A stretch of DNA of 51,349 nt from Syntrophomonadaceae bacterium (GTDB taxonomy: Bacteria; Bacillota; Dethiobacteria; DTU022): NCBI GenBank assembly GCA_003552365.1, contig PUKR01000099.1, positions 1 through 51,349 on the forward strand. The letters are read 5' to 3'. The notes beneath the pieces were generated by a model, which did no database searches, was not told where the DNA came from, and was given only the letters and a program-made list of their open reading frames with translations. This document shows, one piece after another, positions 4,215-27,418 of this stretch; the first letter of the stretch is position 1; every line of letters begins with the position of its first letter. A program made the position numbers and the translations under genes.

Positions 4215-5426
4215 CTACTTCCAAACCATATCAGCAAGCTCAAGCGATTCCAGGTAATAAGACATAACCTCAACTTCGTCAAGCCCATATTTATCAGAAG
4301 CAATAGCAAAAGCATTTTCCCAGTTTCCTTTTTCATAAAGTAAAACCATATCCAGGATATCTCTAAAGGCACCGGGTTCCCCGCTTAGAGCGTCTTTGAT
4401 TTCCTCTGCCAGGGGCAGCTCTGACAAAACGCTTTCCATCGGTTGATCCAAAAAAGTATCTAGCAGGGAAAACATCCCGGTTAAAAAAAGGTCGGCGCTG
4501 CGATCATGCAGATCGGTTGCCCTGGCCATTGATTCACAGAACTTAGCCCTGGCTACAGCAGTTACCATCAGTTCATCGGGTTTATCATAACCGACATTAC
4601 GCAGGGCAACCAAAGAAGCCCATTTAATCATTTCTTTTTGACCCAGCAGGGCCATGGCCTGGCGAATAGAACGAATCGGGAAGCGGAGCGGAAAAGCGAC
4701 AGAATTTATAAACCGCAATAATTTATAAGATAGGGACGGGTCTTGTTTAATTAAAGTTTCCACCTGGTCAAAATCCATATCCGGTTTATATATTTCCTGC
4801 AGCAAACGGAGGTTTTGTAATTTAGCCCCCGGGACTTCTTTACCGGTTATTACGGTGGGCTCGCAGAAAAAAAAGCCCTGAAAGAAATCATAACCATTTG
4901 CCATGGCATCCCCGTAATCTTTAACATTCTCCACTTTTTCAGCAATCAGCTTCACCTTGCTGTTTTTAAAGTAATTAACAATTTCTTCACGTTCCCGGGC
5001 CTCAGTTTCCTGGTAATCCACTTTAATAAAGTCGGCAATATCCACTAATTTTGTTGTTTCCGAACTGTGCACGTAGTCATCAAGGATAATCATGTACCCT
5101 TTTTTCTTAAGGGCCAAACAAGCTTGACAAGTTTCTTGTTCAAACCCATAATCCCGGGCTATTTCAATTGCGATCAAATCCCTGGGCAAAAGCAACGCTG
5201 TTTCATTCTTAATCAGCTGCTCGCTAAAGTTAATAAATGCCCTTTTTCGCCTGGTTAATTTATCCAGACCAAGATTTAAAAAACTATTAACAATGACCTC
5301 AGAAGTAGCCAGATCTCCGTCCGTGGTAGGATTGTAATTATGAGAGCCGGTTCGGTACAGTAATTCATAGGCATATACCTTTTGCCGTCGATCAAATATT
5401 GGTTGCCTGGCCACAAATACTTCCAA
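4215..5426 (-). CDS. EAL-domain + HDOD-domain protein (c-di-GMP-related signalling)
   Basis: 403-aa ORF, TTG start with SD GAGGAGG. The N-terminus VARQPIFDRRQKVYAYELLYR plus INFS, IKVD, AEKVE and FFQGFFF fit an EAL fold. The C-terminal half (SLSYKLLRFINS...LGQKEMIKWASLVAL) is HDOD-like. Confidence 0.8.
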   Translation of the reverse strand: MEVFVARQPIFDRRQKVYAYELLYRTGSHNYNPTTDGDLATSEVIVNSFLNLGLDKLTRRKRAFINFSEQLIKNETALLLPRDLIAIEIARDYGFEQETCQACLALKKKGYMIILDDYVHSSETTKLVDIADFIKVDYQETEAREREEIVNYFKNSKVKLIAEKVENVKDYGDAMANGYDFFQGFFFCEPTVITGKEVPGAKLQNLRLLQEIYKPDMDFDQVETLIKQDPSLSYKLLRFINSVAFPLRFPIRSIRQAMALLGQKEMIKWASLVALRNVGYDKPDELMVTAVARAKFCESMARATDLHDRSADLFLTGMFSLLDTFLDQPMESVLSELPLAEEIKDALSGEPGAFRDILDMVLLYEKGNWENAFAIASDKYGLDEVEVMSYYLESLELADMVWK

Positions 5427-5700
5427 ACCTAATCCTCCTCTACCATAAAACTTGCCTTATTTCGATTGGTCAATTTCACCTAATAGTTCGTCAGAAACCC
5501 GGAAATTCCTTTATAATAAGCTTAATTCAACATTTTCATAAACCGGTTAATTCTTTCCACCTAAACTTAGAGTCTCTGCTCAGCCAAGCTGCATTCTAGA
5601 CCGTTGCCGGTTCGTCGCCGGCAAAGGCGACAATAAAATCGAGCATTAAAAATCATTACAATATCAGCAGGTTATCAACCAATGGTTCGCTAAAAATAAT

Positions 5701-5991
5701 TTAAACACCACCGCGACGATCTGCTTCCATAATAAAAGCATAAATTGCCGCAACTGCTTCATAAAGTTCACGGGGCACTTCTTCACCGAGTTGAAGATTA
5801 CTCAGCACTTTAACCAGGGCAGTATCTTCGACTATGGGGATACTGTTTTCACTGGCCAGCTTGATAATATTGTCTGCAAGCCAGCCACGACCGCTGGCTG
5901 AAACACTGGGCGCTTCATTTTTTCCCGGGTCATATTTTAGGGCAACCGCCCGGCGTATTTCATTGATAGTTTTCTTGTGATTATCTTCCAA
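5701..5991 (-). CDS. FlhB C-terminal-domain-like protein (EscU/YscU/HrcU-family stand-alone domain, YlqH-like)
   Basis: AVALKYDPGKNEAPSVSASGRGWLADNIIKLASENSIPIVEDTALVKVLSNLQLGEEVPRELYEAVAAIYAFI matches the post-NPTH part of FlhB (compare the window's own FlhB: VVAKGVEVLAQKIREIAGENEVPVVENPPVARVLW...IPMELYQAVAEIMALVY). I set the start at TTG 5989-5991, 8 nt after SD AAAGGAG. The ORF track extends to 6075. Confidence 0.8.
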   Translation of the reverse strand: MEDNHKKTINEIRRAVALKYDPGKNEAPSVSASGRGWLADNIIKLASENSIPIVEDTALVKVLSNLQLGEEVPRELYEAVAAIYAFIMEADRRGGV

Positions 5992-6004
5992 GTAAGATGC
6001 TCCT

Positions 6005-6718
6005 TTAAGCCCTGGCATTAAGACCAAATCCACCCTGGTGGAGTATTTCCACCGCTTTTTTCCGCAAGTTGCCAACCGACCACTGCAGGGGGACAGCCGT
6101 ATTATTATCTTCTCCTCCGGCCTCTTTAACCAGGCGCCTTGCTTCTTTTTCTAACGCTTTCCCCGCCTTTTGCGATTCTACCACGAACCGGCATTCCAGC
6201 CTTTTACCTGCATAGCTATAAAAGTAAACCAGCACCAGCCCAAAATTTTCTGTGTCTAAAAACAGCTCCATCAGCGGGTCCGGCTGGGCATGTGACCTTT
6301 CACGTTTATTTCGGGGAGGAATAAACCGAACCAGGGCAGGCGACGACCGGTATCTATTTGCTGCTCCGGGGAAAAGGCCAAACAGCAGTGGTTCGCTGAA
6401 ATCGGCCCGGTTGATAAAAGCGTTACTTTCTGTTGTGGCAGACCCCGGCAAACGAGCCATGATCCGGTAATGAGGCCGTCCCTCTTTTGTCCCATTATAG
6501 TTTAAAAGCAGTGTTTCTCCGGGAACTACCCTGGCATTTAAATGAGCCGTAAAATTTCCTCCCTCCCAGCGCAGCACAGCGGCATCACCTTTGAGGGCAG
6601 TAACTTTGGCTACCAGCGATTCGGGCATTTTTGAACGGCCCTGTCCGGTAGATTTACCAGCAGTTAATTGTTTCAGCACCGGATCCTGAAATATTGCACT
6701 TAAAATTCTGCTATCCAA
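6005..6718 (-). CDS. hypothetical protein with weak FliK C-terminal (Flg_hook)-like segment
   Basis: 237-aa ORF, TTG start 6 nt after SD GAGGAGAG. The segment MELFLDTENFGLVLVYFYSYAGKRLECRFVVESQKAGKALEKEARRLVKEA aligns without gaps to the window's FliK segment MRMTLHPPELGELTIRVFSRQGQLSASILTESPMVREILEGSIAELRQRL. The pattern of L, G, S, G, ES, LE and L residues is shared. Confidence 0.45.
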   Translation of the reverse strand: MDSRILSAIFQDPVLKQLTAGKSTGQGRSKMPESLVAKVTALKGDAAVLRWEGGNFTAHLNARVVPGETLLLNYNGTKEGRPHYRIMARLPGSATTESNAFINRADFSEPLLFGLFPGAANRYRSSPALVRFIPPRNKRERSHAQPDPLMELFLDTENFGLVLVYFYSYAGKRLECRFVVESQKAGKALEKEARRLVKEAGGEDNNTAVPLQWSVGNLRKKAVEILHQGGFGLNARA

Positions 6719-6764
6719 ATTGTTCTCTCCTCAAGGCAACCCAACCCTTATAAGATATAAGGAT

Positions 6765-7589
6765 TTAGTATACTGTTATCTCCAGGAGATAAAGCAGGGA
6801 GCTTACCACCTGGTGGTGAAAATCGATCCTTTCCTCCATGGGCATTTTCGTTACTGTCTCCACAATCAATGCTTCATATCCGCTTGCGTTAACAGCATTA
6901 ATTAATGTTCCCGTGGTTCCGCCACGCAAGATAAGAAAATGATGCTCCTCGTTAATTATGGTCCTGTTAACCGCCGTTTTTAATTCCTGCACTATGTCCA
7001 GGGAATCCGCACCGCGGGGGTAAATGAAGGTTTGTCCCAGAGAACCGGGCACTTTCCTCTCAAAATTTGAGGCTTCGTGAAGGTCGATTACCCAGTCAGG
7101 TTCAAATTCTTGAATAACTGAAAAGATAACTGAAGCCATCACCTCAGTTCCTACCCCGTTGGCATTACCCGGAAAAGAACGGTTTAAATCAAGGCCATCC
7201 TGCGGGGCGCTCCTGGTTCTTTCAGCTATCGCAGGTTCATTAGCTCTTGGCAACAGCAGCAGAGTGCCCCGATCAATAGCCCAGCTGGTCATTTCACTCA
7301 CTGCTTTAAAGCCTGCCGGTTCATTGCCATGAATGCCGCCGATAACCATAACTGTAGGGCCTTCATTCGGGGAAGAAATCTTGTAAAGAAGCGTTTCCCA
7401 CTCTGTAGTTTCCCGCAACACCCTTTCATTCCGGACAGCTGTTATTTCAGTTGCGGTTCCAACATTATTCCCTTCATGACCTTGTCGAAAGCGCGGTGAC
7501 GTGTTTGATATCTCCCCGGTTATCGTCAACAGAAAGATTGCAAGGGCAAGTAAATATACAATTGCTGACAGCCTGTGTTTTCCGAACAT
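6765..7589 (-). CDS. secreted/membrane-anchored zinc peptidase of the M14-like succinylglutamate desuccinylase/aspartoacylase (AstE/AspA) family
   Basis: 274-aa ORF with SD GGAGGG. It has an N-terminal hydrophobic signal/anchor (LSAIVYLLALAIFLL), the HxxE zinc motif VIGGIHGNEPAG, and a later VIDLHEA. Confidence 0.7.
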   Translation of the reverse strand: MFGKHRLSAIVYLLALAIFLLTITGEISNTSPRFRQGHEGNNVGTATEITAVRNERVLRETTEWETLLYKISSPNEGPTVMVIGGIHGNEPAGFKAVSEMTSWAIDRGTLLLLPRANEPAIAERTRSAPQDGLDLNRSFPGNANGVGTEVMASVIFSVIQEFEPDWVIDLHEASNFERKVPGSLGQTFIYPRGADSLDIVQELKTAVNRTIINEEHHFLILRGGTTGTLINAVNASGYEALIVETVTKMPMEERIDFHHQVVSSLLYLLEITVY

Positions 7590-7638: not shown

Positions 7639-8427
7639 TTATTTAAGTTTTTTGTAAATTGAAGGGATCACCCTTTCCAATTGATAGCGTTCAGGTTTAT
7701 TAATAAATTCGGCACATCCGATTATTAAATAACCACCCGGTGAAATCTTTTTTGAAACCTCTTCTACAATCCATTCCTGGACATCAATTTTAAAGTAGAT
7801 AAAAACATTGCGGCAAAGGATCATTTGCATCGAGGGCATATTATCATAAATCGGCGCCAAAAGGTTATGCTTTTTAAAAGTAACTGCCTTTTTATAAGCC
7901 GGAGCAAGGTAGTAAAATCCATTTTTTTGCTCGAACGCAGATTTCAAAAGCTCCGGGGGAACTTTTTCGAGTTGGTTTAGATTGTACCTGGCTTCACGGG
8001 CCATCTCCAGGGCTTTATCATCGATATCGCTGGCAGTGATTTCCGCACGGTGCAGTGAAGAAAGCTGATCAAGAATTAGAGCTATGGTATAAGGCTCTTC
8101 CCCGTGGGAACAACCCATACTCCATATTTTAAGGCGATTGAATTTATTTAACAGATCAACCATGGCGCTGTTTTGAAGGTAATCATAAATTTTTGTATCG
8201 CGGAAAAAAATAGAGGTGTTGATTGTTAAATAATTATAGAATTTATGCAGCAGCTCGTTACTTGATTTTAGTGCTTTAAAAAATGAATGAAGGCCGTCAT
8301 ATCCCTCACGGTTAACCAGCTGGCCGATCCTTCTTTCCATCTGCTTATCTTTATACCGGTCCAGGTCAAGCCCGGTAAACTCATAGAATTCTTTTTTGAA
8401 CTGGACAAAGTCCCAGTCTTTCTTCAC
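7639..8427 (-). CDS. cheR: chemotaxis protein methyltransferase CheR
   Basis: 262-aa ORF, GTG start after AAGGAGAGG. It has TSIFFRD, the SAM motif IWSMGCSHGEEPYTIA, and CRNVFIYF. Confidence 0.93.
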   Translation of the reverse strand: MKKDWDFVQFKKEFYEFTGLDLDRYKDKQMERRIGQLVNREGYDGLHSFFKALKSSNELLHKFYNYLTINTSIFFRDTKIYDYLQNSAMVDLLNKFNRLKIWSMGCSHGEEPYTIALILDQLSSLHRAEITASDIDDKALEMAREARYNLNQLEKVPPELLKSAFEQKNGFYYLAPAYKKAVTFKKHNLLAPIYDNMPSMQMILCRNVFIYFKIDVQEWIVEEVSKKISPGGYLIIGCAEFINKPERYQLERVIPSIYKKLK

Positions 8428-8463
8428 TCGGTTTCCTCTCCTTTCAAATCCTTTAACCAGTTT

Positions 8464-9528
8464 TTAGCTAAGAATTCGAGTATAACGTTCTATTTCAGCG
8501 GCCATTTTTTCCACGCTCATCCTGGCATCACACAAACCGGTTTTTATAACTGCCGCCGGCATACTGGGGATAAGAGCAGTATCTGGCTCCTGAACAATAA
8601 CGATTGTATCTTCTTTCTTTTTTTTCAAGGCTACAGTCCCGTCGGTACCATCCCTACCCATCCCGGTCATGATCACCGCCAATATTTTTTGTTCACACTT
8701 CAAAAGTGATTGATACATGACATCAATTGCCGGCCGGACAAAATTAACCCTTGGACCGGTATCCAGATGAGCCCTGCCGTTTTTGATCACCAGGTGATAA
8801 CCACCCGGAGCCACCAGGGCCCGCCCCTTCAACAAAGCATCCCCTTCTTCAGCTTCTTTAACCCTTAAGGGGGAGAGCATATCCAGTCTTTGGGCAAATG
8901 AAAACGTAAAGCCGGGTGGCATATGCTGCGAAAGCAAAACAGTTGCCGGCAGGTTAGCCGGGAATCTGCTAAACAAAGCTTCCAGTGCTTTTGGCCCCCC
9001 GGTTGAGGCTCCGATAGCAACAATAACACGAGCAGCTTCATCAACCTGTTTTGTAACCTGCGGAATATTTTTTGCTTTGCCCTCAGCAGGTTTCTCGGCA
9101 GATATTAACTTAACCTGGGCTATAGCAGCCGCTTTTATTTTCTGGGGCAAAACATTTTTAAGTTCTTCAATCGATTCACTGGCAGTGCCTGACGAACTTA
9201 AAGCAGGCTTCGAAATAATATCCACCGCACCCGCATCAAGTGATTTCAAAGTTACCTCACTGCCTATCTTTGTGTGGCTACTTAAAATGATAACCGGCAG
9301 TGGATTTTTTGCCATGATCTTTTGCAATGTTTCCATACCGTCCATCCTGGGCATTTCGAGATCCATAGTAACCACGTCGGGCTTGCTTTTTTTAATTTTT
9401 TCCAGCGCGTCAACCCCGTCCCTTGCTGTGGCAATCACCTCAATTTCAGGATGTTCCCGTATTATATCGCTTATAATGCGGCGCATGAATGCAGAATCTT
9501 CAACCACCAGGACCCGAATTACATTCAA
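8464..9528 (-). CDS. cheB: protein-glutamate methylesterase/glutaminase CheB
   Basis: 354-aa ORF. It has a receiver domain (VLVVEDS...VTMDLEMPRMDG) plus a methylesterase domain (IGASTGGP, HMPP.FT, GMG.DG). The TTG start overlaps the cheD stop (TTGA). Confidence 0.95.
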   Translation of the reverse strand: MNVIRVLVVEDSAFMRRIISDIIREHPEIEVIATARDGVDALEKIKKSKPDVVTMDLEMPRMDGMETLQKIMAKNPLPVIILSSHTKIGSEVTLKSLDAGAVDIISKPALSSSGTASESIEELKNVLPQKIKAAAIAQVKLISAEKPAEGKAKNIPQVTKQVDEAARVIVAIGASTGGPKALEALFSRFPANLPATVLLSQHMPPGFTFSFAQRLDMLSPLRVKEAEEGDALLKGRALVAPGGYHLVIKNGRAHLDTGPRVNFVRPAIDVMYQSLLKCEQKILAVIMTGMGRDGTDGTVALKKKKEDTIVIVQEPDTALIPSMPAAVIKTGLCDARMSVEKMAAEIERYTRILS

Positions 9529-10013
9529 CTTTTCACTGCTCCTTCACCGACAGTTGTTATCTTTACTTCCCCCGAATCAACAAAAAGACGCATGGTCCTG
9601 CCGCATTTGCCCCCCACGGCTTCGCTCGAGATTTTTATCCCCTGCTCTTTTAAGGCAGCACGCACCGCTTCAATATTTTTATAACCCACATTACCGGTTT
9701 CGTTTTGAAAATTAAACAAGCTGGCACCGCCGGCTATCCTGGCGACCAGATTATTTCTCCTGGCTCCTAAAGAAACCATTTGATCAACCAGGCAAGGAAT
9801 AGCCGTGTCGGCAAACTTTGCCGGGTTAACATCACCACTACTGGGCCGTTTAAACTTGCTGCTGTCATTAAGCAGGATATGCGCAAGCCCGCCTACTTTT
9901 GTATTATGATCATAAAGGGCAATACCGATACAAGAACCCAGGCCGAATGTTACCAGCACTCCACTTTCCTTTTTAACAGCCAGATCGGCTATTTTAACGT
10001 GAACTGTTTCCAT
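9525..10013 (-). CDS. cheD: chemoreceptor glutamine deamidase CheD
   Basis: 162-aa ORF. GLGSCIGIALYD...GGLAHILL and ARIAGGASLF are characteristic of CheD. Confidence 0.9.
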   Translation of the reverse strand: METVHVKIADLAVKKESGVLVTFGLGSCIGIALYDHNTKVGGLAHILLNDSSKFKRPSSGDVNPAKFADTAIPCLVDQMVSLGARRNNLVARIAGGASLFNFQNETGNVGYKNIEAVRAALKEQGIKISSEAVGGKCGRTMRLFVDSGEVKITTVGEGAVKS

Positions 10014-10062: not shown

Positions 10063-10428
10063 TTAACCTTCCAGTTTAGCTAACGCTTCAGCAATCCGAT
10101 CCGGCTGAAAAGGCTTGACCACGAAATCCTTAGCCCCTGCATTCAAAGCTTCTATAACCAGGCTTTTTTGCCCCATAGCGCTAACAACAATAATCAGGGC
10201 ATCCGGGTCATGCTCCTTAATTTCTTTTATTGCCGTAATCCCGTCCTTGTTAGGCATAGTGATATCCATTGTCACTAAAGACGGTTTTAATTCTTTATAA
10301 AGCTCAACCCCCTTTACACCATCTTCACCTTCGGCTACAACCTCGTAACCGTTTTTTTCCAGCATATTTTTTAAAGTCATCCTCATAAATGCCGTGTCAT
10401 CAACCACTAAAACTGTTTTGCTCAACAT
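10063..10428 (-). CDS. cheY: chemotaxis response regulator CheY
   Basis: Single receiver domain (VLVVDDTAFMR...VTMDITMPNKDG...VVSAMG...KDFVVKPF). I set the start at ATG 10426-10428, 4 nt after SD GGGAGGG. It overlaps the cheA 3' end by 29 nt. Confidence 0.93.
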   Translation of the reverse strand: MLSKTVLVVDDTAFMRMTLKNMLEKNGYEVVAEGEDGVKGVELYKELKPSLVTMDITMPNKDGITAIKEIKEHDPDALIIVVSAMGQKSLVIEALNAGAKDFVVKPFQPDRIAEALAKLEG

Positions 10429-12568
10429 AATCCCTCCCTTCACTTAAAAGACCGGCCACATCTATAATTAAGGTTACACTACCGTCGCCTAAAACCGTAG
10501 CCCCGGCAATACCTTTCAATCCCTTCAAGAAACTGCCAAGTGATTTTATCATAATTTCCTGCTGCCCGACCAGTTCATCAACAATAAAACCGGCCTTGCG
10601 ATTAGTTGCTTCTACAATAACGACAGAGCACTCTTCATCATTTACCTGGGTATGTTCAAAACCAAGCAGACTACTTAAAGTATAAAGCGGTATAACCTCT
10701 CCCCTTAAATTAACTACAGGATTGCCCCGAATTGTTTTTATCTCCTTACTGTCAAGATAAACATTTTCATTAATCACCTCCACGGGAATAGCATAAAGCT
10801 GGCCATTGGATTTGACCAATAAAGTAGTGATTATTGCCAGGGTCAGGGGAAGGCGAATTTCAAAGCGAGTCATAACATTGATCTCACTGGAAACCTCAAC
10901 TGTGCCGTGTAAAGCTTCAATGCTGTTTCTGACCGCATCCATGCCTACTCCCCTGCCGGATACATCGGTTATTTCATCTGAAGTGCTGAAACCGCTGAAG
11001 AAAATTAAGCTAATCAGGTCATCTTTGCTCAACTGGTTCATTTCATCTTCAGTAATTACTCCCTTTTCAACTGCCATACTTCCGATCTTCTGGGGGTCGA
11101 TGCCCGATCCGTCATCTTCGACTGTAATAACTACCTGGTTTCCTTCATGGCGGGCATTTAAATAGATAGAACCTTCCGGATTTTTACCTTTATCTTTTCG
11201 CACCTCCGGCGATTCTACACCGTGGTCAAAAGCATTGCGCAGTAAGTGCACCAGTGGATCGGATAACCGGTTAATGATCGAACGATCCAGCTCGGTTTCT
11301 TCTCCACTGATATAAAGTTGAACTTTTTTCCCCTTTTCCCGGCATAAATCCCGCACCATCCGCGGGAAACGGCCAAAAACCTGGTCGATCGGAACCATAC
11401 GCAGCTCCATGGCAGTGTCTTGCAGGTTGGTAATAGAGCGTTTTAATTGATCAATTGTGCTGTCCAGGTCCTCATTAAAGCCATGGCCTATTTCTGTAAT
11501 CCTGGTCCGCGCTACAACCATCTCACCAACCAGGTTAACCAAATCATCGAGTTTTTGAGTTTCCACCCTGACCATCTTGTCTGCAGCCCTGGATCCCTGT
11601 CCCTGGTCTCCGGAAGGGGCTTTTTCGGACACCTCATTTTCTGGCGTGGTATTTTTAACCTCCTGATTTTCTTTTTCAGGCTGTTCTTTATAAACACCGG
11701 TTCCTTCTTCCGAAACCTTATCCTTACCTGTATCATCTTCTGCCTTTACTGCTTCCGATTCGGCTTCAGATAACGGTCCGGCAGAGGCTGCACCATCATT
11801 TTCTCCGGTACCCCACAGGTTTATTTCCACCCTCTCCACATCGGTTATATGCTCCAACGCTTCTTTAAGGCCTTCCGGGGTTCCGGCTTCCAAAACTAAA
11901 ACCACCCTGAAAGACCGTTCAAATCTTTCTTCCTCAAGCTCCTGGCGTGAGGGATCCGAGATAACTATTTCAGCAAATTCTTCCATCGCTTTAAAGATCA
12001 TATGCACCCGGACCGATTTCATTAAAGCATCTTCATTTAAACTTATATTGACAATATAGGGGGAATTACCCCCTTCTTCGGCCTGCCTCAGGATTTCTTT
12101 ATCCATGGCCCCGAGTAATAATTCATCTTCTCCAATTCCTGCATTGTCATGCTTACAGGGAGAACCTAAATCTTCATTGTCACACACCTTGTCACGCACT
12201 TTTTTCATTTTAATTAAAAGCTGTTCCCATTTTTGCCGGTCCCCTTCGGTAGATTTGTCAGGTTGCTCAAGGGCTTCCTGCAGTACATCAACCGCTTCAA
12301 AAATCAAGTCAATTACCTCAGGACCCGGCTCCCGCTCAAGGGTTTTAAAATCTTCCATAAAGTTTTCAAGGCCGTGGGCAATGTTACACACATGTTGATA
12401 GCCCATGGTTCCGGCCATGCCCTTTAAGCTATGGGCCACTCGAAAAGCTTCCTGCAGCTCTTCTGTGTCTTTTGGATTTTTTTCCAGGTTAAGCAGGCAC
12501 TGGTTCAAAACTTGCATATACTCCTCGGCTTCAGCCTGGAAAAGTTCTGCGTATTGCGAGACATCCAT
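10400..12568 (-). CDS. cheA: chemotaxis histidine kinase CheA
   Basis: 722-aa ORF. It has an HPt P1 domain with AHSLKG, an acidic linker, the kinase N/G boxes (HLLRNAFDHG, DDGSGI, GRGVGMD), and a C-terminal CheW-like P5 domain. Confidence 0.96.
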   Translation of the reverse strand: MDVSQYAELFQAEAEEYMQVLNQCLLNLEKNPKDTEELQEAFRVAHSLKGMAGTMGYQHVCNIAHGLENFMEDFKTLEREPGPEVIDLIFEAVDVLQEALEQPDKSTEGDRQKWEQLLIKMKKVRDKVCDNEDLGSPCKHDNAGIGEDELLLGAMDKEILRQAEEGGNSPYIVNISLNEDALMKSVRVHMIFKAMEEFAEIVISDPSRQELEEERFERSFRVVLVLEAGTPEGLKEALEHITDVERVEINLWGTGENDGAASAGPLSEAESEAVKAEDDTGKDKVSEEGTGVYKEQPEKENQEVKNTTPENEVSEKAPSGDQGQGSRAADKMVRVETQKLDDLVNLVGEMVVARTRITEIGHGFNEDLDSTIDQLKRSITNLQDTAMELRMVPIDQVFGRFPRMVRDLCREKGKKVQLYISGEETELDRSIINRLSDPLVHLLRNAFDHGVESPEVRKDKGKNPEGSIYLNARHEGNQVVITVEDDGSGIDPQKIGSMAVEKGVITEDEMNQLSKDDLISLIFFSGFSTSDEITDVSGRGVGMDAVRNSIEALHGTVEVSSEINVMTRFEIRLPLTLAIITTLLVKSNGQLYAIPVEVINENVYLDSKEIKTIRGNPVVNLRGEVIPLYTLSSLLGFEHTQVNDEECSVVIVEATNRKAGFIVDELVGQQEIMIKSLGSFLKGLKGIAGATVLGDGSVTLIIDVAGLLSEGRDYVEQNSFSG

Positions 12569-12601: not shown

Positions 12602-14380
12602 TTATAAGCCGTAGCTCTCAATCACATCTTCATACTGGATTTCAGTAATTCTAACTCCAAGCTGATCATTAATCATCACTACCTCACCCCGGGCCAGCAG
12701 TTTATCGTTGGCTAAAATTTCTACCGGATCATTCACATTGCAATCAAGATCGACAATACCGCCTTTATCCATAGAAAACAACTTGCCGAGGGGGACTCTT
12801 GCCGAGCCAAGGACAACTACAATATCCATGGGGATATCTTTAACCAGGTTTAGCCTCTGCATATCTACGCCCAAATCTTCAGCTCCGGCACTACCCGGGG
12901 TGTAGTCTGTCGTTTGTTCTTCTTTATTGTTTTCCTGGCTAAAAGCTGTTTCAGGAAACCCGGAGTCTTCATCGATGAGCTGTTCAGAATCCTCTTCTTT
13001 CCTTAAAGGTTCTTCAACGGCAACTTCCGGTTCGCTTTCCCCATAAAGCAGGTAACCGGCCATTTTCTTTGCAAAACTAACCGGGATAACCTGGATCATG
13101 ATGCTGTCGATTATATCGGCCACTTTCATTTTAAATTCAACATGAACCACTTTTTCTTCACTATCAAAGTTGTATAGTTCTGGCACCTCGTTTGCCAGGT
13201 CGATCGATTCCAGGCTGGGAGTGGAAATTTCAATGGTCCGCTGAAAAAGTTCCGACATTGAAGTTGACATCGACCCCATCATCTGGTTCATCGCTTCCTG
13301 GACTGCACTGTGTTCTATTTCGCTTAACGGTCCCTCCTTGGTTCCCGGGTCCTCGCCCATCATTAAAGCAGCAATTATGATCGCATCGCTTTCCTTGATC
13401 ATTAAAACATTACTGCCTTCGAGTCCGGAAGTATACTCTACTTTTACCAGGAGACAGGGCAATGGATATTGCTCCTGGATTTCACTTACTTTGCGAACAT
13501 CCAGGTTGGGAGTTGTAATGTCAACAGGCTTTTCCAGGATTGTTGAGAGCGCGGTAGCAGAAGCACCAAGCGATATGTTGCCTACTTCCGCGATGGTGTC
13601 TTTTTCCAAATCACTTAACTCTTCGGGCTGCTTATCACCGGTATTGATCACCACTGTTTCAATTTCTGAATGATCATCCTCACCGGGATCCGGGTCTCCT
13701 GTTTCTTCTTCATCATCCTGGCCAGGCGAATCAACTACCGCCTCTGGTCCGGGAGCAGGTTGTTCGTCCGAACCAGAGGCTGTCTCTGCTCCGCCCGATA
13801 GCAGGTGGGCACACATCTCCCGGGCAAAATCAACCGGAATAACCTGGACCATAATACTGTCTATAAAATCGTCCACCTTCATTGAAAACTGAACATGAAC
13901 CAGCTTACCATCGGCTGATAATGTTTCCTGAGCAGGAATGTCATCTGCCAGGTTTATCCGCTCGACTTTTGGCGTAGAAATTTCAATAGTGCGCTGAAAC
14001 AACTCAGACATTGATGTAGCCATTGATCCCATCATCTGGTTCATTGCTTCCTGAACCGCGCTAAGCTCAATTTCGTTTAAAGGTCCTTCCTTATCAGCAG
14101 GATCGTCGCCCATCATCAGGGCTGCGATAACCACGGCATCCTCTTCTTTGATCAAAAGGATATTGCTGCCACGCAGACCGGATATATACTCGACCTCGAC
14201 CAAGAGACAGGGAAGTGGGTACTTTTGCCTGAGCTCACTGCCTTCAACTATTGACAACTGGGGCGTAGTAATATCAACAAACTTATCCAGTATAGTCGAA
14301 AGCGCGGTAGCAGAAGCGCCTAAAGATATATTTCCCACCTCAGCCAGGGTGTCTTTTTCAAGAGCACTTAATTCTTCCAC
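12602..14380 (-). CDS. fliY: flagellar motor switch phosphatase FliY with two tandem CheC-like domains + C-terminal FliN/SpoA domain
   Basis: 592-aa ORF, GTG start. aa 3-196 and aa 253-446 are two copies of a CheC-like module, each with two [D/S]xxxExxN-x22-P motifs. The C-terminus (IVVVLGSARVPLGKLFSMDKGGIVDLD...PVEILANDKLLARGEVVMINDQLGVRITEI) is a FliN/SpoA domain. Confidence 0.9.
   Translation of the reverse strand: MEELSALEKDTLAEVGNISLGASATALSTILDKFVDITTPQLSIVEGSELRQKYPLPCLLVEVEYISGLRGSNILLIKEEDAVVIAALMMGDDPADKEGPLNEIELSAVQEAMNQMMGSMATSMSELFQRTIEISTPKVERINLADDIPAQETLSADGKLVHVQFSMKVDDFIDSIMVQVIPVDFAREMCAHLLSGGAETASGSDEQPAPGPEAVVDSPGQDDEEETGDPDPGEDDHSEIETVVINTGDKQPEELSDLEKDTIAEVGNISLGASATALSTILEKPVDITTPNLDVRKVSEIQEQYPLPCLLVKVEYTSGLEGSNVLMIKESDAIIIAALMMGEDPGTKEGPLSEIEHSAVQEAMNQMMGSMSTSMSELFQRTIEISTPSLESIDLANEVPELYNFDSEEKVVHVEFKMKVADIIDSIMIQVIPVSFAKKMAGYLLYGESEPEVAVEEPLRKEEDSEQLIDEDSGFPETAFSQENNKEEQTTDYTPGSAGAEDLGVDMQRLNLVKDIPMDIVVVLGSARVPLGKLFSMDKGGIVDLDCNVNDPVEILANDKLLARGEVVMINDQLGVRITEIQYEDVIESYGL
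13043..13624 (-). repeat. intragenic tandem duplication in fliY, copy 2 (CheC-like module, aa 253-446)
   Basis: See copy 1. An acidic Pro/Asp/Glu-rich linker (aa about 197-252) separates the two copies. Confidence 0.85.
13793..14374 (-). repeat. intragenic tandem duplication in fliY, copy 1 (CheC-like module, aa 3-196)
   Basis: My manual alignment to copy 2 gives about 137/194 identical residues, with a period of 250 aa (750 nt). Confidence 0.85.
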
Positions 14381-14404: not shown

Positions 14405-14749
14405 CTAGCGTAAATTTTCAATCCGTTCTTCGGGTTTGATAATGTTCTTCAGGCGAATTCCAAACGTTTCGTCAATAGTAATTACTTCTCCCTCGGCAAA
14501 TGGTTTGCCGTTTACCACGAGTTCAACCGGTTCGTCAATCATTTTATCCAGTTCGATCACTGTTCCCACGGTTAAATTTAACAATTGCCCGATGGTTCTT
14601 TCTGCATTCCCAAGGCGAACTGAAACTTCAAGCGGAAAGTCGAGCACCAGTTTAAGCTTCAAGTCCATTTTAAGCTCATCTTCCCGGTTCGAACCCTCAC
14701 TGAGCAGAGCATTCATTTCCTCTTCAGATAAAATATGTCGGTTATCCAT
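14405..14749 (-). CDS. short FliN/SpoA-domain switch protein with N-terminal LSxEEMNALL (CheY-P-binding-like) peptide
   Basis: The SpoA domain reads LEVSVRLGNAERTIGQLLNLTVGTVIELDKMIDEPVELVVNGKPFAEGEVITIDETFGIRLKNI. I set the start at ATG 14747-14749 (MDNRHILSEEEMNALLSE), which overlaps the fliM stop by 8 nt. The ORF track extends to 14806. Confidence 0.8.
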   Translation of the reverse strand: MDNRHILSEEEMNALLSEGSNREDELKMDLKLKLVLDFPLEVSVRLGNAERTIGQLLNLTVGTVIELDKMIDEPVELVVNGKPFAEGEVITIDETFGIRLKNIIKPEERIENLR

Positions 14750-15758
14750 AGTTTTCCCCCGTGCTATAGTTATCTTTATCTTTTTCCTCAGAAATTTTAT
14801 CCACAATTTTAACTCCCAGGCGTTTACCCCGGGTCCCCGGCTGGACCTTAAAAATAGGCCTGCCCTCTACTAAAAGATCCAAAGATTCACCACGTCGACG
14901 GCGCAGGGGCAGGACATCACCTTCCTGGAGCTGGAGAAAATCATCCAGGGTTATCCTTGATTTCCCCAGGACTACTTTAATTTCAGCTTCAGGACTTTGG
15001 AGGCATTTTTCAATATCGCCGGGCTTACTTTTAGATGCACTTTGTTGAAACTGGTTAAACCATTGCTGGGCGGTTAGGCTGGAAAGGATCCGCTCAAGCC
15101 CCATGAAAGGAAAGCAGAGGTTGACAAAACCCTGGACATTTTGCACGGTTGCAGAAAAGGTGACCAGGGCCACCGTTTCATTGGAAGCAATTACCTGGTT
15201 AAACTGGGGATTGGTATCCATACTTTCAATCTGCGGCTCCAACTGGGCGATACCTTTCCAGGCATACCCGAGGTTGTCTAAGAACTTTTCATTGATTTGC
15301 CTCATAACCGAAATTTCTATTTCCGTAAGCTCCCTAATCTTGGCCGGTTGCCTGCCCTCACCGCCAAAAAGGAGATCTATAATGGTAAAGACAAAAGTAG
15401 GATTGGTTTCCAGCATGGCAACGCCCATATCCCTGGACATATTGAATATCGTCATCAGGGTAGGCACAGGCAGTGAAAACACAAATTCTTCATATGATAC
15501 CTGAGCAACAGACACCACATTTAACTTGACCGGCACCCGCAAAAAAGATGTAAGGAAATTACCCATAATACGGGCATAATTTTCATGGATAATCTGCAGG
15601 GTCCGAAGCTGTTCCTTGGTAAACTTGGTCGGTTTTCTAAAATCGTAAGTCTGGTATTCAGTGGAAGTTTCCCGGGTTTCTTCCTCACCAAGGTCACCGC
15701 TGGATATTGCATTGATCAATGAATCAATTTCTGACTGGGTTAAAGCATCTTTGCCCAT
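14742..15758 (-). CDS. fliM: flagellar motor switch protein FliM
   Basis: 338-aa ORF with SD GGGAGGTG. It has the N-terminal CheY-P-binding motif LTQSEIDSLINAI, a YDFRKP motif, a CheC-like middle domain and a C-terminal SpoA-like region. Confidence 0.95.
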   Translation of the reverse strand: MGKDALTQSEIDSLINAISSGDLGEEETRETSTEYQTYDFRKPTKFTKEQLRTLQIIHENYARIMGNFLTSFLRVPVKLNVVSVAQVSYEEFVFSLPVPTLMTIFNMSRDMGVAMLETNPTFVFTIIDLLFGGEGRQPAKIRELTEIEISVMRQINEKFLDNLGYAWKGIAQLEPQIESMDTNPQFNQVIASNETVALVTFSATVQNVQGFVNLCFPFMGLERILSSLTAQQWFNQFQQSASKSKPGDIEKCLQSPEAEIKVVLGKSRITLDDFLQLQEGDVLPLRRRRGESLDLLVEGRPIFKVQPGTRGKRLGVKIVDKISEEKDKDNYSTGENYG

Positions 15759-18781: not shown

Positions 18782-19546
18782 TTACTCTTTATTGCGCATT
18801 GATTCAAACAGATAGTTTATAATGCGCTCCCGAACGTTTTCGTTTATATTGATAAAGCTAACCCCGGCCCGGTATCGTTTCCACCTTCCTATGCTAATGG
18901 TCACAACCCTGACAACCTTTCCTTCCAGGAGAAAAACATGGTTCTCTTCTCCATTAAGCTTGATCTTAATTAAAAGATGATCGTTTCTTTTTAACCGCTC
19001 GGAGACAACCATTCGCAACCCGCCCCCGGACAGGTCCAGGGTAAAAGCAGCTCTTCCCGGCATTATGCTTTCCAATTCCCTGGTGCGTTCCTCCATCCAG
19101 AGTGGGTCTTCCCAAAACCCGGGAGTGCGACACGAACTAAAATATTGAGTGCTGTTTTTTATAGCCGGGTCATCCAGGCACCAATAACGCAATTCGAAGT
19201 GACAGGGAACCCGGATATGACCCCGCCGCTGGTGCCGCTCTACCGTGTAAGGTTTTTTCACCAGGTAATGCTTTTCCACGCTGTTCCGGTTAACTCCGAT
19301 CACTAAAGAATTAAACAGATAAACAGCTTCATCTTTTACCAGGCAAAACTGCCAGCTGCTGTTATGAGGCATGGGTAGTTCTTTACCGCCGGAAACCGGT
19401 TCACATATGGTTATAATCTCCTTACCCGTTTCCCTGATATGGCAGGTATAATATTCTTGATCCCGCTCGTTCAAAACCTGGAGCCGATCACCAACTGTTA
19501 AACTTTTATTCATTTCAGCCGCTTTTCTTCTTCCGAACAGCTTCAT
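18782..19546 (-). CDS. PilZ-domain c-di-GMP-binding protein (YcgR-like flagellar brake candidate)
   Basis: 254-aa ORF. It has a YcgR-N-like N-terminal half and a PilZ signature, RRGHIR (RxxxR) plus DLSGGG (DxSxxG). The start ATG overlaps the flhG stop (ATGA). Confidence 0.82.
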   Translation of the reverse strand: MKLFGRRKAAEMNKSLTVGDRLQVLNERDQEYYTCHIRETGKEIITICEPVSGGKELPMPHNSSWQFCLVKDEAVYLFNSLVIGVNRNSVEKHYLVKKPYTVERHQRRGHIRVPCHFELRYWCLDDPAIKNSTQYFSSCRTPGFWEDPLWMEERTRELESIMPGRAAFTLDLSGGGLRMVVSERLKRNDHLLIKIKLNGEENHVFLLEGKVVRVVTISIGRWKRYRAGVSFININENVRERIINYLFESMRNKE

Positions 19547-26633: not shown

Positions 26634-26996
26634 TTATTCCCGGCTATCGTCCTTTTTAAAATTTTGCAGGATCCTGGAAAAAGAACCCCTTATATTAACT
26701 GGCTGTACAGCCAGAGAATCTTCGGCATACTGCAATTCTTTCCAGTCAAACGTCTTGAGCAGGTTTACATTATTTTGGGCGGTCCCGACGAGATAAACCT
26801 CTTTACCTACTTGAATTAGTGTCAGGGAACTGCCGCTCTTATGATCTAAGGGAACCCGCTCTAAAACTTTCATGTATCCACCATTTACTCCACGGTAAAC
26901 CGAGCGCAGGCCATAGCGGATCGCCAGGTATGCCAGGATTACAATTAAAATCAGAAACCCCATCGACTGTAAAATCAGCCCGTAATTACCCATCAT
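26634..26996 (-). CDS. fliO: flagellar biosynthesis protein FliO/FliZ
   Basis: 120-aa ORF with a single N-terminal TM helix. KVLERVPLDHKSGSSLTLIQVGKEVYLVG is typical of FliO. The start overlaps the fliN stop (TAATG). Confidence 0.75.
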   Translation of the reverse strand: MMGNYGLILQSMGFLILIVILAYLAIRYGLRSVYRGVNGGYMKVLERVPLDHKSGSSLTLIQVGKEVYLVGTAQNNVNLLKTFDWKELQYAEDSLAVQPVNIRGSFSRILQNFKKDDSRE

Positions 26997-27418
26997 TAAG
27001 CCTCTCTTCCCGTTTCAGATCCATCATGATCCTCATCATCTTCAACCAGCGAGGTAATGCGTAATCCAAAACGGTCGTTAATTACAACAATTTCCCCGTG
27101 CGCAAAAGGAGTTTCATTAACTAAAATAAGCACTTTTTCATCGGCCACCCGGTTCAACTGGAGCACTGAGCCTTCTTCCAGGTTGATCAAATCTCGAACC
27201 TTCAGGGTTACTTTTCCCAGCTCGGCACTAACGTTTAAACCAACCCCGTGAAACTCCGGGGCAATGCCCCTCCTGGGCGAAACCGGAGCGCTATCGGGCA
27301 GGGGTTGAAATACCACCTTCTTGATATCAGGTTTCCCCTGATCTTCTTGATTATCCCCCCAGCTATCGTCTTCACCGGTGAAAGGTTTTTGTTCATCCCA
27401 AAAACTGCCAGACATCAT
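26996..27418 (-). CDS. fliN: flagellar motor switch protein FliN (SpoA domain)
   Basis: 140-aa ORF with SD AAGGAG. It has an acidic N-terminus followed by LNVSAELGKVTLKVRDLINLEEGSVLQLNRVADEKVLILVNETPFAHGEIVVINDRFGLRITSL. Confidence 0.85.
   Translation of the reverse strand: MMSGSFWDEQKPFTGEDDSWGDNQEDQGKPDIKKVVFQPLPDSAPVSPRRGIAPEFHGVGLNVSAELGKVTLKVRDLINLEEGSVLQLNRVADEKVLILVNETPFAHGEIVVINDRFGLRITSLVEDDEDHDGSETGREA

Follow-up and report, generated by a model that had tools for sequence, protein, structure and literature searches.

In chemotaxis of the Bacillus type, FliY is the main phosphatase acting on phosphorylated CheY (CheY-P), and the number of its copies at the flagellar motor sets the speed at which the signal is switched off. 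In the canonical proteins that we compared, from Bacillaceae, Clostridium, Pectinatus and Syntrophomonas, the N-terminus reads LSQ(D/E)EIDALL. The cytoplasmic rings (C-rings) of Helicobacter, Campylobacter and Leptospira motors contain both FliY and FliN, and the FliY of these bacteria lacks the phosphatase active sites (PMC6946799). Here we describe the fliY gene of a Syntrophomonadaceae bacterium, carried on a contig of 51,349 nucleotides (nt) (PUKR01000099.1, assembly GCA_003552365.1), the whole of which is referred to as the window. Its product contains two CheC-type modules in tandem, followed by a single FliN/SpoA domain. We think it likely that this protein is a motor-anchored CheY-P phosphatase of the FliY type, whose module was duplicated in tandem in an ancestor of its clade and whose two copies have both been kept for the same job.

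The gene starts with a GTG codon, with a GGAAGGA Shine-Dalgarno sequence located 7-8 nt upstream. Pfam searches assigned four stretches to CheC (PF04509; E 2.5e-48) and amino acids (aa) 512-581 to a single FliMN_C domain (PF01052; E 8.7e-20), and both copies score as CheC. The FliY equivalog of NCBIfam, NF005995, matched with 565 bits, passing its cutoff of 218, and its best stretch (aa 239-581) corresponds to module 2 plus the FliN domain. The top sequence match in the PDB is the middle domain of Thermotoga maritima FliY (4HYN), aligned to module 2 (aa 256-450, E 1.5e-33), and the FliN/SpoA domain matches T. maritima FliN (1O6A/1YAB), Salmonella FliN (8UMD) and both chains of the Helicobacter pylori FliY/FliN structure (5XRW). 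An AlphaFold2 model built from 51 homologues shows two confident CheC folds, with a predicted local distance difference test score (pLDDT) mostly above 90, two disordered segments and a C-terminal beta-rich FliN domain. Within module 1 the pLDDT is mostly 82-95 and drops to about 72 in a loop at aa 141-160; it is below 50 at aa 198-252 in linker 1 (Asp+Glu 32%, Pro 12%) and at aa 451-510 in linker 2 (Asp+Glu 32%). When the whole model was used in a Foldseek search, 4HYN was again the top match, with a TM-score (target) of 0.89 and a root-mean-square deviation of 2.3 Å over about 200 columns. A sequence-only reading of the window had proposed this layout, namely two CheC-like domains, an acidic, proline-rich linker between them and one FliN/SpoA domain, together with about 137/194 identical residues between the copies and four intact active-site motifs. 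The domain searches and the composition of linker 1 bear out the layout, self-alignment in the ungapped register i to i+251 gives 138/195 identical residues, and a regular-expression search for the strict motif [DS]xxxExxN-x22-P returns starts at aa 10, 107, 261 and 358, as claimed.

Conservation of the four sites was assessed in 42 clade proteins. At site 1 the motif residues are DENP in 39/42 proteins (EENP in the other 3/42); they are SENP at site 2 in 40/42, DENP at site 3 in 42/42 and SENP at site 4 in 40/42. Every one of the 42 proteins has the catalytic Glu at each of the four sites, and the catalytic Asn is found at sites 1-4 in 42, 40, 42 and 42 of the 42, respectively. The two modules also vary to the same extent: copies of module 1 share a mean pairwise identity of 0.66 and those of module 2 one of 0.67, with mean column entropies of 0.88 and 0.84, respectively. 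In an alignment of both modules from 40 proteins, 93 of the 196 columns are conserved and identical in both copies, while not one of the 196 is conserved but different between module 1 and module 2; subfunctionalisation was rejected as a candidate on this last count. These data indicate that both copies are equally constrained, with no trace of a division of labour in the sequences, and that all four sites are being kept under selection in the clade.

Local self-alignment of the protein pairs aa 2-225 with aa 253-464 (144/212 identical), which corresponds to 68% identity for the protein and 68% for the DNA; in the ungapped register the modules are 70% identical. Across the clade, module 1 and module 2 share a mean identity of 0.63. 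For either module the mean is 0.54 against single-module FliY from the sister lineages and 0.21 against six stand-alone CheCs taken from related loci; single-module FliY compared with CheC gives this last value too. Since both modules are only 21% identical to CheC, are nearer to single-module FliY and cluster with FliY modules, the second module arose by internal duplication within fliY. A cheC-fliY fusion is ruled out by the same two observations, the low identity to CheC and the clustering among FliY modules, in agreement with the origin favoured by the sequence-only reading.

A protein search of NCBI, JGI, ENA and Logan assemblies recovered about 40 clusters with full-length coverage at 52-76% identity, all of which have two modules. 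The nearest species-representative genomes are four metagenome-assembled genomes (MAGs) from soda-lake sediment labelled 'Syntrophomonadaceae bacterium' (58-65% identity), and one partial homologue carries the label Dethiobacteria. The comparisons thus point to a duplication common to a clade of uncultured, Dethiobacteria-related Bacillota. Module numbers were counted in the 120 best homologue clusters: 31 have one module, 78 have two and 11 have three, and four strict motifs are present in 59/78 of the two-module clusters. The two-module set includes 13 clusters of the Bacillus cereus group (544-550 aa), with four intact motifs in all of them. Three-module FliY proteins of 760-863 aa were seen in other Bacillota MAGs (loci L009, 9992-12583, and L091, 1744-4158; proteins P0042-P0053 and P0067); their first module is usually diverged and has lost its second site, and P0067 has six strict motifs as well as an N-terminal MSQEDID peptide. 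In several lineages the two modules of one protein are sisters, with identities of 75% (P0048), 72% (P0055), 83-84% (P0059/P0062), 72% (P0068), 81% (P0070), 61% (P0087) and about 52% (B. cereus). This sister relationship within single proteins indicates that duplication or homogenisation has occurred repeatedly and independently.

The layout had been presented in the sequence-only reading as a departure from canonical FliY; as a novelty this does not stand, given the 78 two-module and 11 three-module clusters, those of the B. cereus group among them, and NF005275, a model that NCBIfam devotes to the B. cereus group proteins and that spans the whole protein. This model aligns to aa 3-581 of the query with 446 bits and does not reach its equivalog cutoff of 681. 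For the B. cereus group, public databases already contain the layout, and the present protein is not a new system but a FliY to which a module has been added; genome annotation may treat multi-module proteins in the same way. Full-text literature searches returned no description of a duplicated CheC domain in FliY, although an earlier description is still possible.

In order to date the duplication, we compared synonymous positions and built module trees. At four-fold degenerate sites within identical amino acids, third bases agree at 26/61 positions, where composition alone predicts 26%, indicating that synonymous sites between the copies are largely randomised. In a neighbour-joining tree (about 196 columns, 100 bootstrap replicates), all clade modules are monophyletic against single-module FliY (bootstrap 74). 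Among the six lineages nearest the query, whose proteins are 63-76% identical, module 1 copies group together (bootstrap 83) and so do module 2 copies (63); the nearest relative's module 1 is the partner of the query's module 1 (98) and its module 2 that of the query's module 2 (97), and the query's own two modules are sisters in 0/100 replicates. The extensive randomisation at synonymous sites and the separate orthologue groups of the two copies show that the duplication is old, and both contradict the 'fairly recent' event put forward in the sequence-only reading. The simplest reading of these data is a duplication just before the clade radiated.

Several other explanations of the doubled module were weighed against this picture. 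That the second copy is an assembly expansion artefact has a negligible probability, since the copies differ at almost a third of their DNA positions and are identical over at most 17 consecutive nt, and dozens of independent assemblies show this layout; the spread of the two-module protein over the clusters described above marks the duplication as real. A recent duplication or ongoing concerted evolution, in which repeated homogenisation or re-duplication keeps the copies about 70% alike, would account for the fairly uniform within-protein identity across the clade (57-72%), for the near-equal similarity of module 1 of distant members to module 2 and module 1 of the query, for the lack of conserved copy-specific residues and for the poor bootstrap support where the two sets of copies part at the base of the clade. 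Yet the subclade near the query groups by copy and not by protein, synonymous sites have drifted apart and all identical DNA tracts are 17 nt or shorter, so we hold this explanation to be very improbable. It is somewhat less remote, but still improbable, that one module is a catalytically irrelevant spacer or pseudo-enzyme, extending the reach of the other or adding bulk to the C-ring. Other lineages do have a degenerated first module, with 22-29% identity to its partner and motifs lost (P0071, P0072, P0076, P0080 and P0105), the first module of three-module proteins is likewise degenerated, and FliM, which is among the fold matches of the FliY model, represents a CheC fold without catalysis. 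In the query clade, however, the Glu/Asn pair of each of the four sites persists in 40-42 of the 42 proteins, and the evolutionary rates of the two modules are equal.

A further explanation, which we also rate as unlikely, is that one FliY module took over the role of CheC as the CheY-P-dependent partner and regulator of CheD after the duplication, permitting the loss of cheC. As the sequence-only reading had noted, no stand-alone cheC lies next to cheD; in the window, cheY and cheD are separated by a gap of 49 nt. Nine query-clade loci that reach this junction, representing eight distinct proteins, could be compared, and a metagenome scan contributed at least one further clade locus (L090). 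In 9/9 of them (the window, L001, L002, L005, L006, L008, L085, L087 and L090) cheD directly follows cheY and cheC is absent, whereas in the nearest single-module lineages (L003/L004, L088 and L094) a CheC of about 200 aa sits exactly between the two genes. Among the loci compared, cheC has been lost from its syntenic slot in the query clade only, and a takeover by FliY, if true, would explain why it vanished from a conserved position only in this lineage. In addition, CheD of the clade keeps the sequence GGASLF in the region of Bacillus subtilis M101/F102, including the Phe equivalent to F102, and these two residues are reported to be conserved only in CheC-possessing species (PMC3513319).

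The remaining observations do not favour such a takeover. Other multi-module loci have retained cheC next to cheD (L009 and L091 with three modules; L010, L011 and L012 with two), and because these five keep cheC, duplication does not entail its loss. A motif at the CheD interface, xDMAGAI, follows the second active site in 13/13 CheCs of related loci; its Asp is residue 149 in two Bacillaceae CheCs, and a D149K substitution in B. subtilis CheC weakens CheD binding (PMC3513319). By alignment, this motif is absent from module 1, module 2 and single-module FliY, the modules reading RINLADDI and SIDLANEV at the corresponding position and being three residues shorter there, like single-module FliY. 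Neither module is closer than the other to CheC, and no column tells the two apart. Furthermore, retention of GGASLF is ambiguous: since the same motif is present with or without an adjacent cheC and F102 contributes to receptor binding too (PMC3513319), it does not discriminate and was discarded as a test. Finally, cheC could sit elsewhere in the genome, because neither cheW nor a gene for a methyl-accepting chemotaxis protein (MCP) was found anywhere in the 51-kb window, so that other chemotaxis genes must be located elsewhere. The sequence-only suggestion that one copy assumed the CheC/CheD role has comparative backing in the empty cheC slot only, and the sequences, which show no asymmetry between the copies and lack the CheD-interface motif, speak against it. 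We regard it as equally doubtful that the duplicated module replaced CheC in such a way that CheD regulation, and hence the CheC/CheD/CheY-P branch of adaptation, either moved to the motor or was dispensed with.

We therefore return to a tandem-duplicated, motor-anchored phosphatase with two equivalent modules as the probable nature of this FliY. Phosphatase activity is suggested by the conserved catalytic Glu/Asn pairs and location at the C-ring by the FliN domain. The FliN/SpoA domain would anchor the protein at the base of the C-ring, probably by pairing with the FliN encoded just upstream, as proposed by parallel with the FliY-FliN heterodimer of H. pylori, whose two chains are each matched by this domain. 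From there, two independently folded phosphatase modules would hang on acidic disordered linkers of about 55-60 residues and present four active sites. A peptide search found no CheY-P docking peptide on the present FliY, which starts directly in its CheC module (MEELSALEKDT...). Instead, the small FliN encoded next to it begins with LSEEEMNALL, resembling the EIDAL docking motif for CheY-P/FlhG of canonical FliY, and FliM carries a docking peptide, LTQSEIDSLI, at its N-terminus. Since the peptide sits on FliM and the adjacent FliN and not on FliY, CheY-P would be docked on FliM or FliN and then dephosphorylated by any of the four tethered sites nearby. Doubling the module would raise the local concentration of phosphatase, or its reach, and it is plausible that the doubled sites sharpen signal termination.

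A peptide on FliN and none on FliY was also observed in L001, L003, L005, L006 and L008-L012. Two possible correlates of module amplification proved not to be general: loss of the EIDAL peptide, as the multi-module proteins P0067 and P0087 keep an MSQEDID peptide, and the presence of a separate FliN, as single-module sister lineages have one too.

Some points count against the favoured interpretation. To our knowledge, no multi-module FliY has been characterised biochemically or by localisation. The module trees are neighbour-joining and not maximum-likelihood trees, and the deepest split between module 1 and module 2 over the whole clade has bootstrap values of only 11 and 1; for this reason, gene conversion may have taken place now and then, or the clade may have seen a second or further duplication. 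Nor does a pure dosage model account for the consistent loss of cheC that the clade shows. For B. cereus, moreover, FliY is described in a 2026 paper as a protein whose exact function 'remains unknown' (PMC12848376).

In Bacillota the CheC module of FliY has undergone duplication or triplication on several occasions, and the continued selection on four sites in the present clade suggests that phosphatase dosage at the C-ring is an adjustable trait in evolution, a possibility of which we found no description in the searchable literature. On a broader reading, to which we give a low probability, repeated independent amplification of the module, to two or three copies and up to six sites, would constitute an undescribed route by which signal termination at the Bacillota motor is tuned. 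The clade-specific loss of cheC, in turn, poses a concrete question, namely how the CheC/CheD branch of adaptation is rewired.

On its minus strand the window carries a single cluster of flagellar and chemotaxis genes, 48 kb long, to which fliY belongs, and the order fliM-fliN-fliY-cheA-cheY-cheD-cheB-cheR is kept in nine clade loci. Coordinates of fliY, its parts and the neighbouring genes are listed in Table 1.

Table 1. Position of fliY, its predicted parts and neighbouring genes in the window (HMM, hidden Markov model; ORF, open reading frame)
Feature	Coordinates	Strand	Basis or remark
fliY, 592-aa flagellar switch phosphatase (putative; two tandem CheC-type modules, one FliN/SpoA domain)	12602..14380	-	ORF list, Pfam, NCBIfam
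CheC-type module 1 (aa 1-196)	13793..14380	-	module HMM, aa 1-196
Active-site motif 1, D10-x3-E14-x2-N17-x22-P40	14261..14353	-	regular expression
Active-site motif 2, S107-x3-E111-x2-N114-x22-P137	13970..14062	-	regular expression
Linker 1 (aa 197-252), acidic, Pro/Gly-rich, predicted disordered	13625..13792	-	composition, pLDDT
CheC-type module 2 (aa 253-447)	13040..13624	-	module HMM, aa 252-447
Active-site motif 3, D261-x3-E265-x2-N268-x22-P291	13508..13600	-	regular expression
Active-site motif 4, S358-x3-E362-x2-N365-x22-P388	13217..13309	-	regular expression
Linker 2 (aa 448-510), acidic, predicted disordered	12851..13039	-	composition, pLDDT
FliN/SpoA domain (aa 511-592), predicted C-ring anchor	12605..12850	-	PF01052
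fliM	14742..15758	-	PF02154 + PF01052
fliN, 114 aa from ATG	14405..14749	-	PF01052; 114-aa gene at the same position in L001, L085, L087
cheA, directly 3' of fliY	10400..12568	-	NCBIfam CheA models
cheY	10063..10443	-	NCBIfam CheY models
cheD, after cheY (49-nt gap)	9525..10013	-	NCBIfam + Pfam CheD
cheB	8464-9528	-	within cheB-cheR stretch 7639..9528
cheR	7639-8427	-	within cheB-cheR stretch 7639..9528
AstE/AspA-type deacylase, Peptidase_M99-like match	6765-7589	-	member of trio 3' of cheR
237-aa protein, no Pfam match	6005-6718	-	member of trio 3' of cheR
Stand-alone FlhB C-terminal-domain protein, TIGR00789 FlhB-like	5701-6075	-	member of trio 3' of cheR

The cluster encodes a second stand-alone FliN-type protein between fliL and fliO (26996-27418, minus strand; 140 aa, PF01052 E 7.6e-22), which has acidic N- and C-terminal tails and no docking peptide. 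With this gene, the cluster encodes four SpoA-domain proteins, that is, FliM, two FliN and FliY. Beginning with a GTG at 10443, the cheY ORF shares 44 nt with the 3' end of cheA (10400-10443), and the overlap is 26 nt in L001; translational coupling of cheA and cheY is possible, or else the cheY start has been set too early. The trio 3' of cheR (5701-7589, minus strand) is conserved, the same three genes following cheR in L001, L002, L085 and L087. In relatives, an MCP gene, cheW or both are located between the FlhB-like and EAL-HDOD genes (L001, 18821-21380; L085, 18761-19261), where the window has a gap of 274 nt (5427-5700), and CheA with its own CheW-like domain was also seen in relatives. 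A YcgR-like PilZ protein (PilZNR + PilZ) is encoded at 18782-19546 (minus strand), between flhG and the flagellar sigma factor gene, and an EAL-HDOD protein at 4215-5426; the presence of these two proteins suggests cyclic di-GMP input to the motor. CheB is full-length in the query clade (351-355 aa), and in the single-module sister genome GCA_900198705.1 (L003, 14520-15176) it has 218 aa, comprising the methylesterase domain without the receiver domain.

Like FliY of T. maritima and B. subtilis, the present protein places a CheC-like domain that carries two [D/S]xxxExxN-x22-P sites ahead of a FliN/SpoA domain, and its gene lies by fliM. It differs from them in having two catalytic modules instead of one, in lacking the N-terminal LSQ(D/E)EIDALL peptide, which sits here on a separate FliN, and in coexisting with two FliN-type proteins (14405-14749 and 26996-27418). 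A parallel in layout is FliY of the B. cereus group (NF005275, equivalent to PRK06782; Bc1629, 'CheC/FliN'), which at 544-550 aa has the same CheC-CheC-FliN arrangement with four intact motifs, also lacks the EIDAL peptide and, as in the window, is encoded next to cheA and cheY (PMC12848376). However, it is only 31-36% identical over the best local alignment and its linkers are short; because its modules are sisters in the tree, apart from the query clade, the B. cereus duplication is independent. Stand-alone CheC of class I, the partner of CheD (1XKR, 2F9Z), has the same fold and two-site motif as the modules, but these are 21% identical to it and lack the xDMAGAI helix with Asp149; whereas CheC is a protein of about 200 aa encoded beside cheD, the modules are part of a 592-aa fusion to FliN, and cheA and cheY lie between fliY and cheD. 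Lastly, FliY and FliN coexist here as they do in Helicobacter, Campylobacter and Leptospira, with the FliN domain matching the H. pylori heterodimer 5XRW, but in contrast to the FliY of those bacteria, the present protein keeps all four of its active sites intact.

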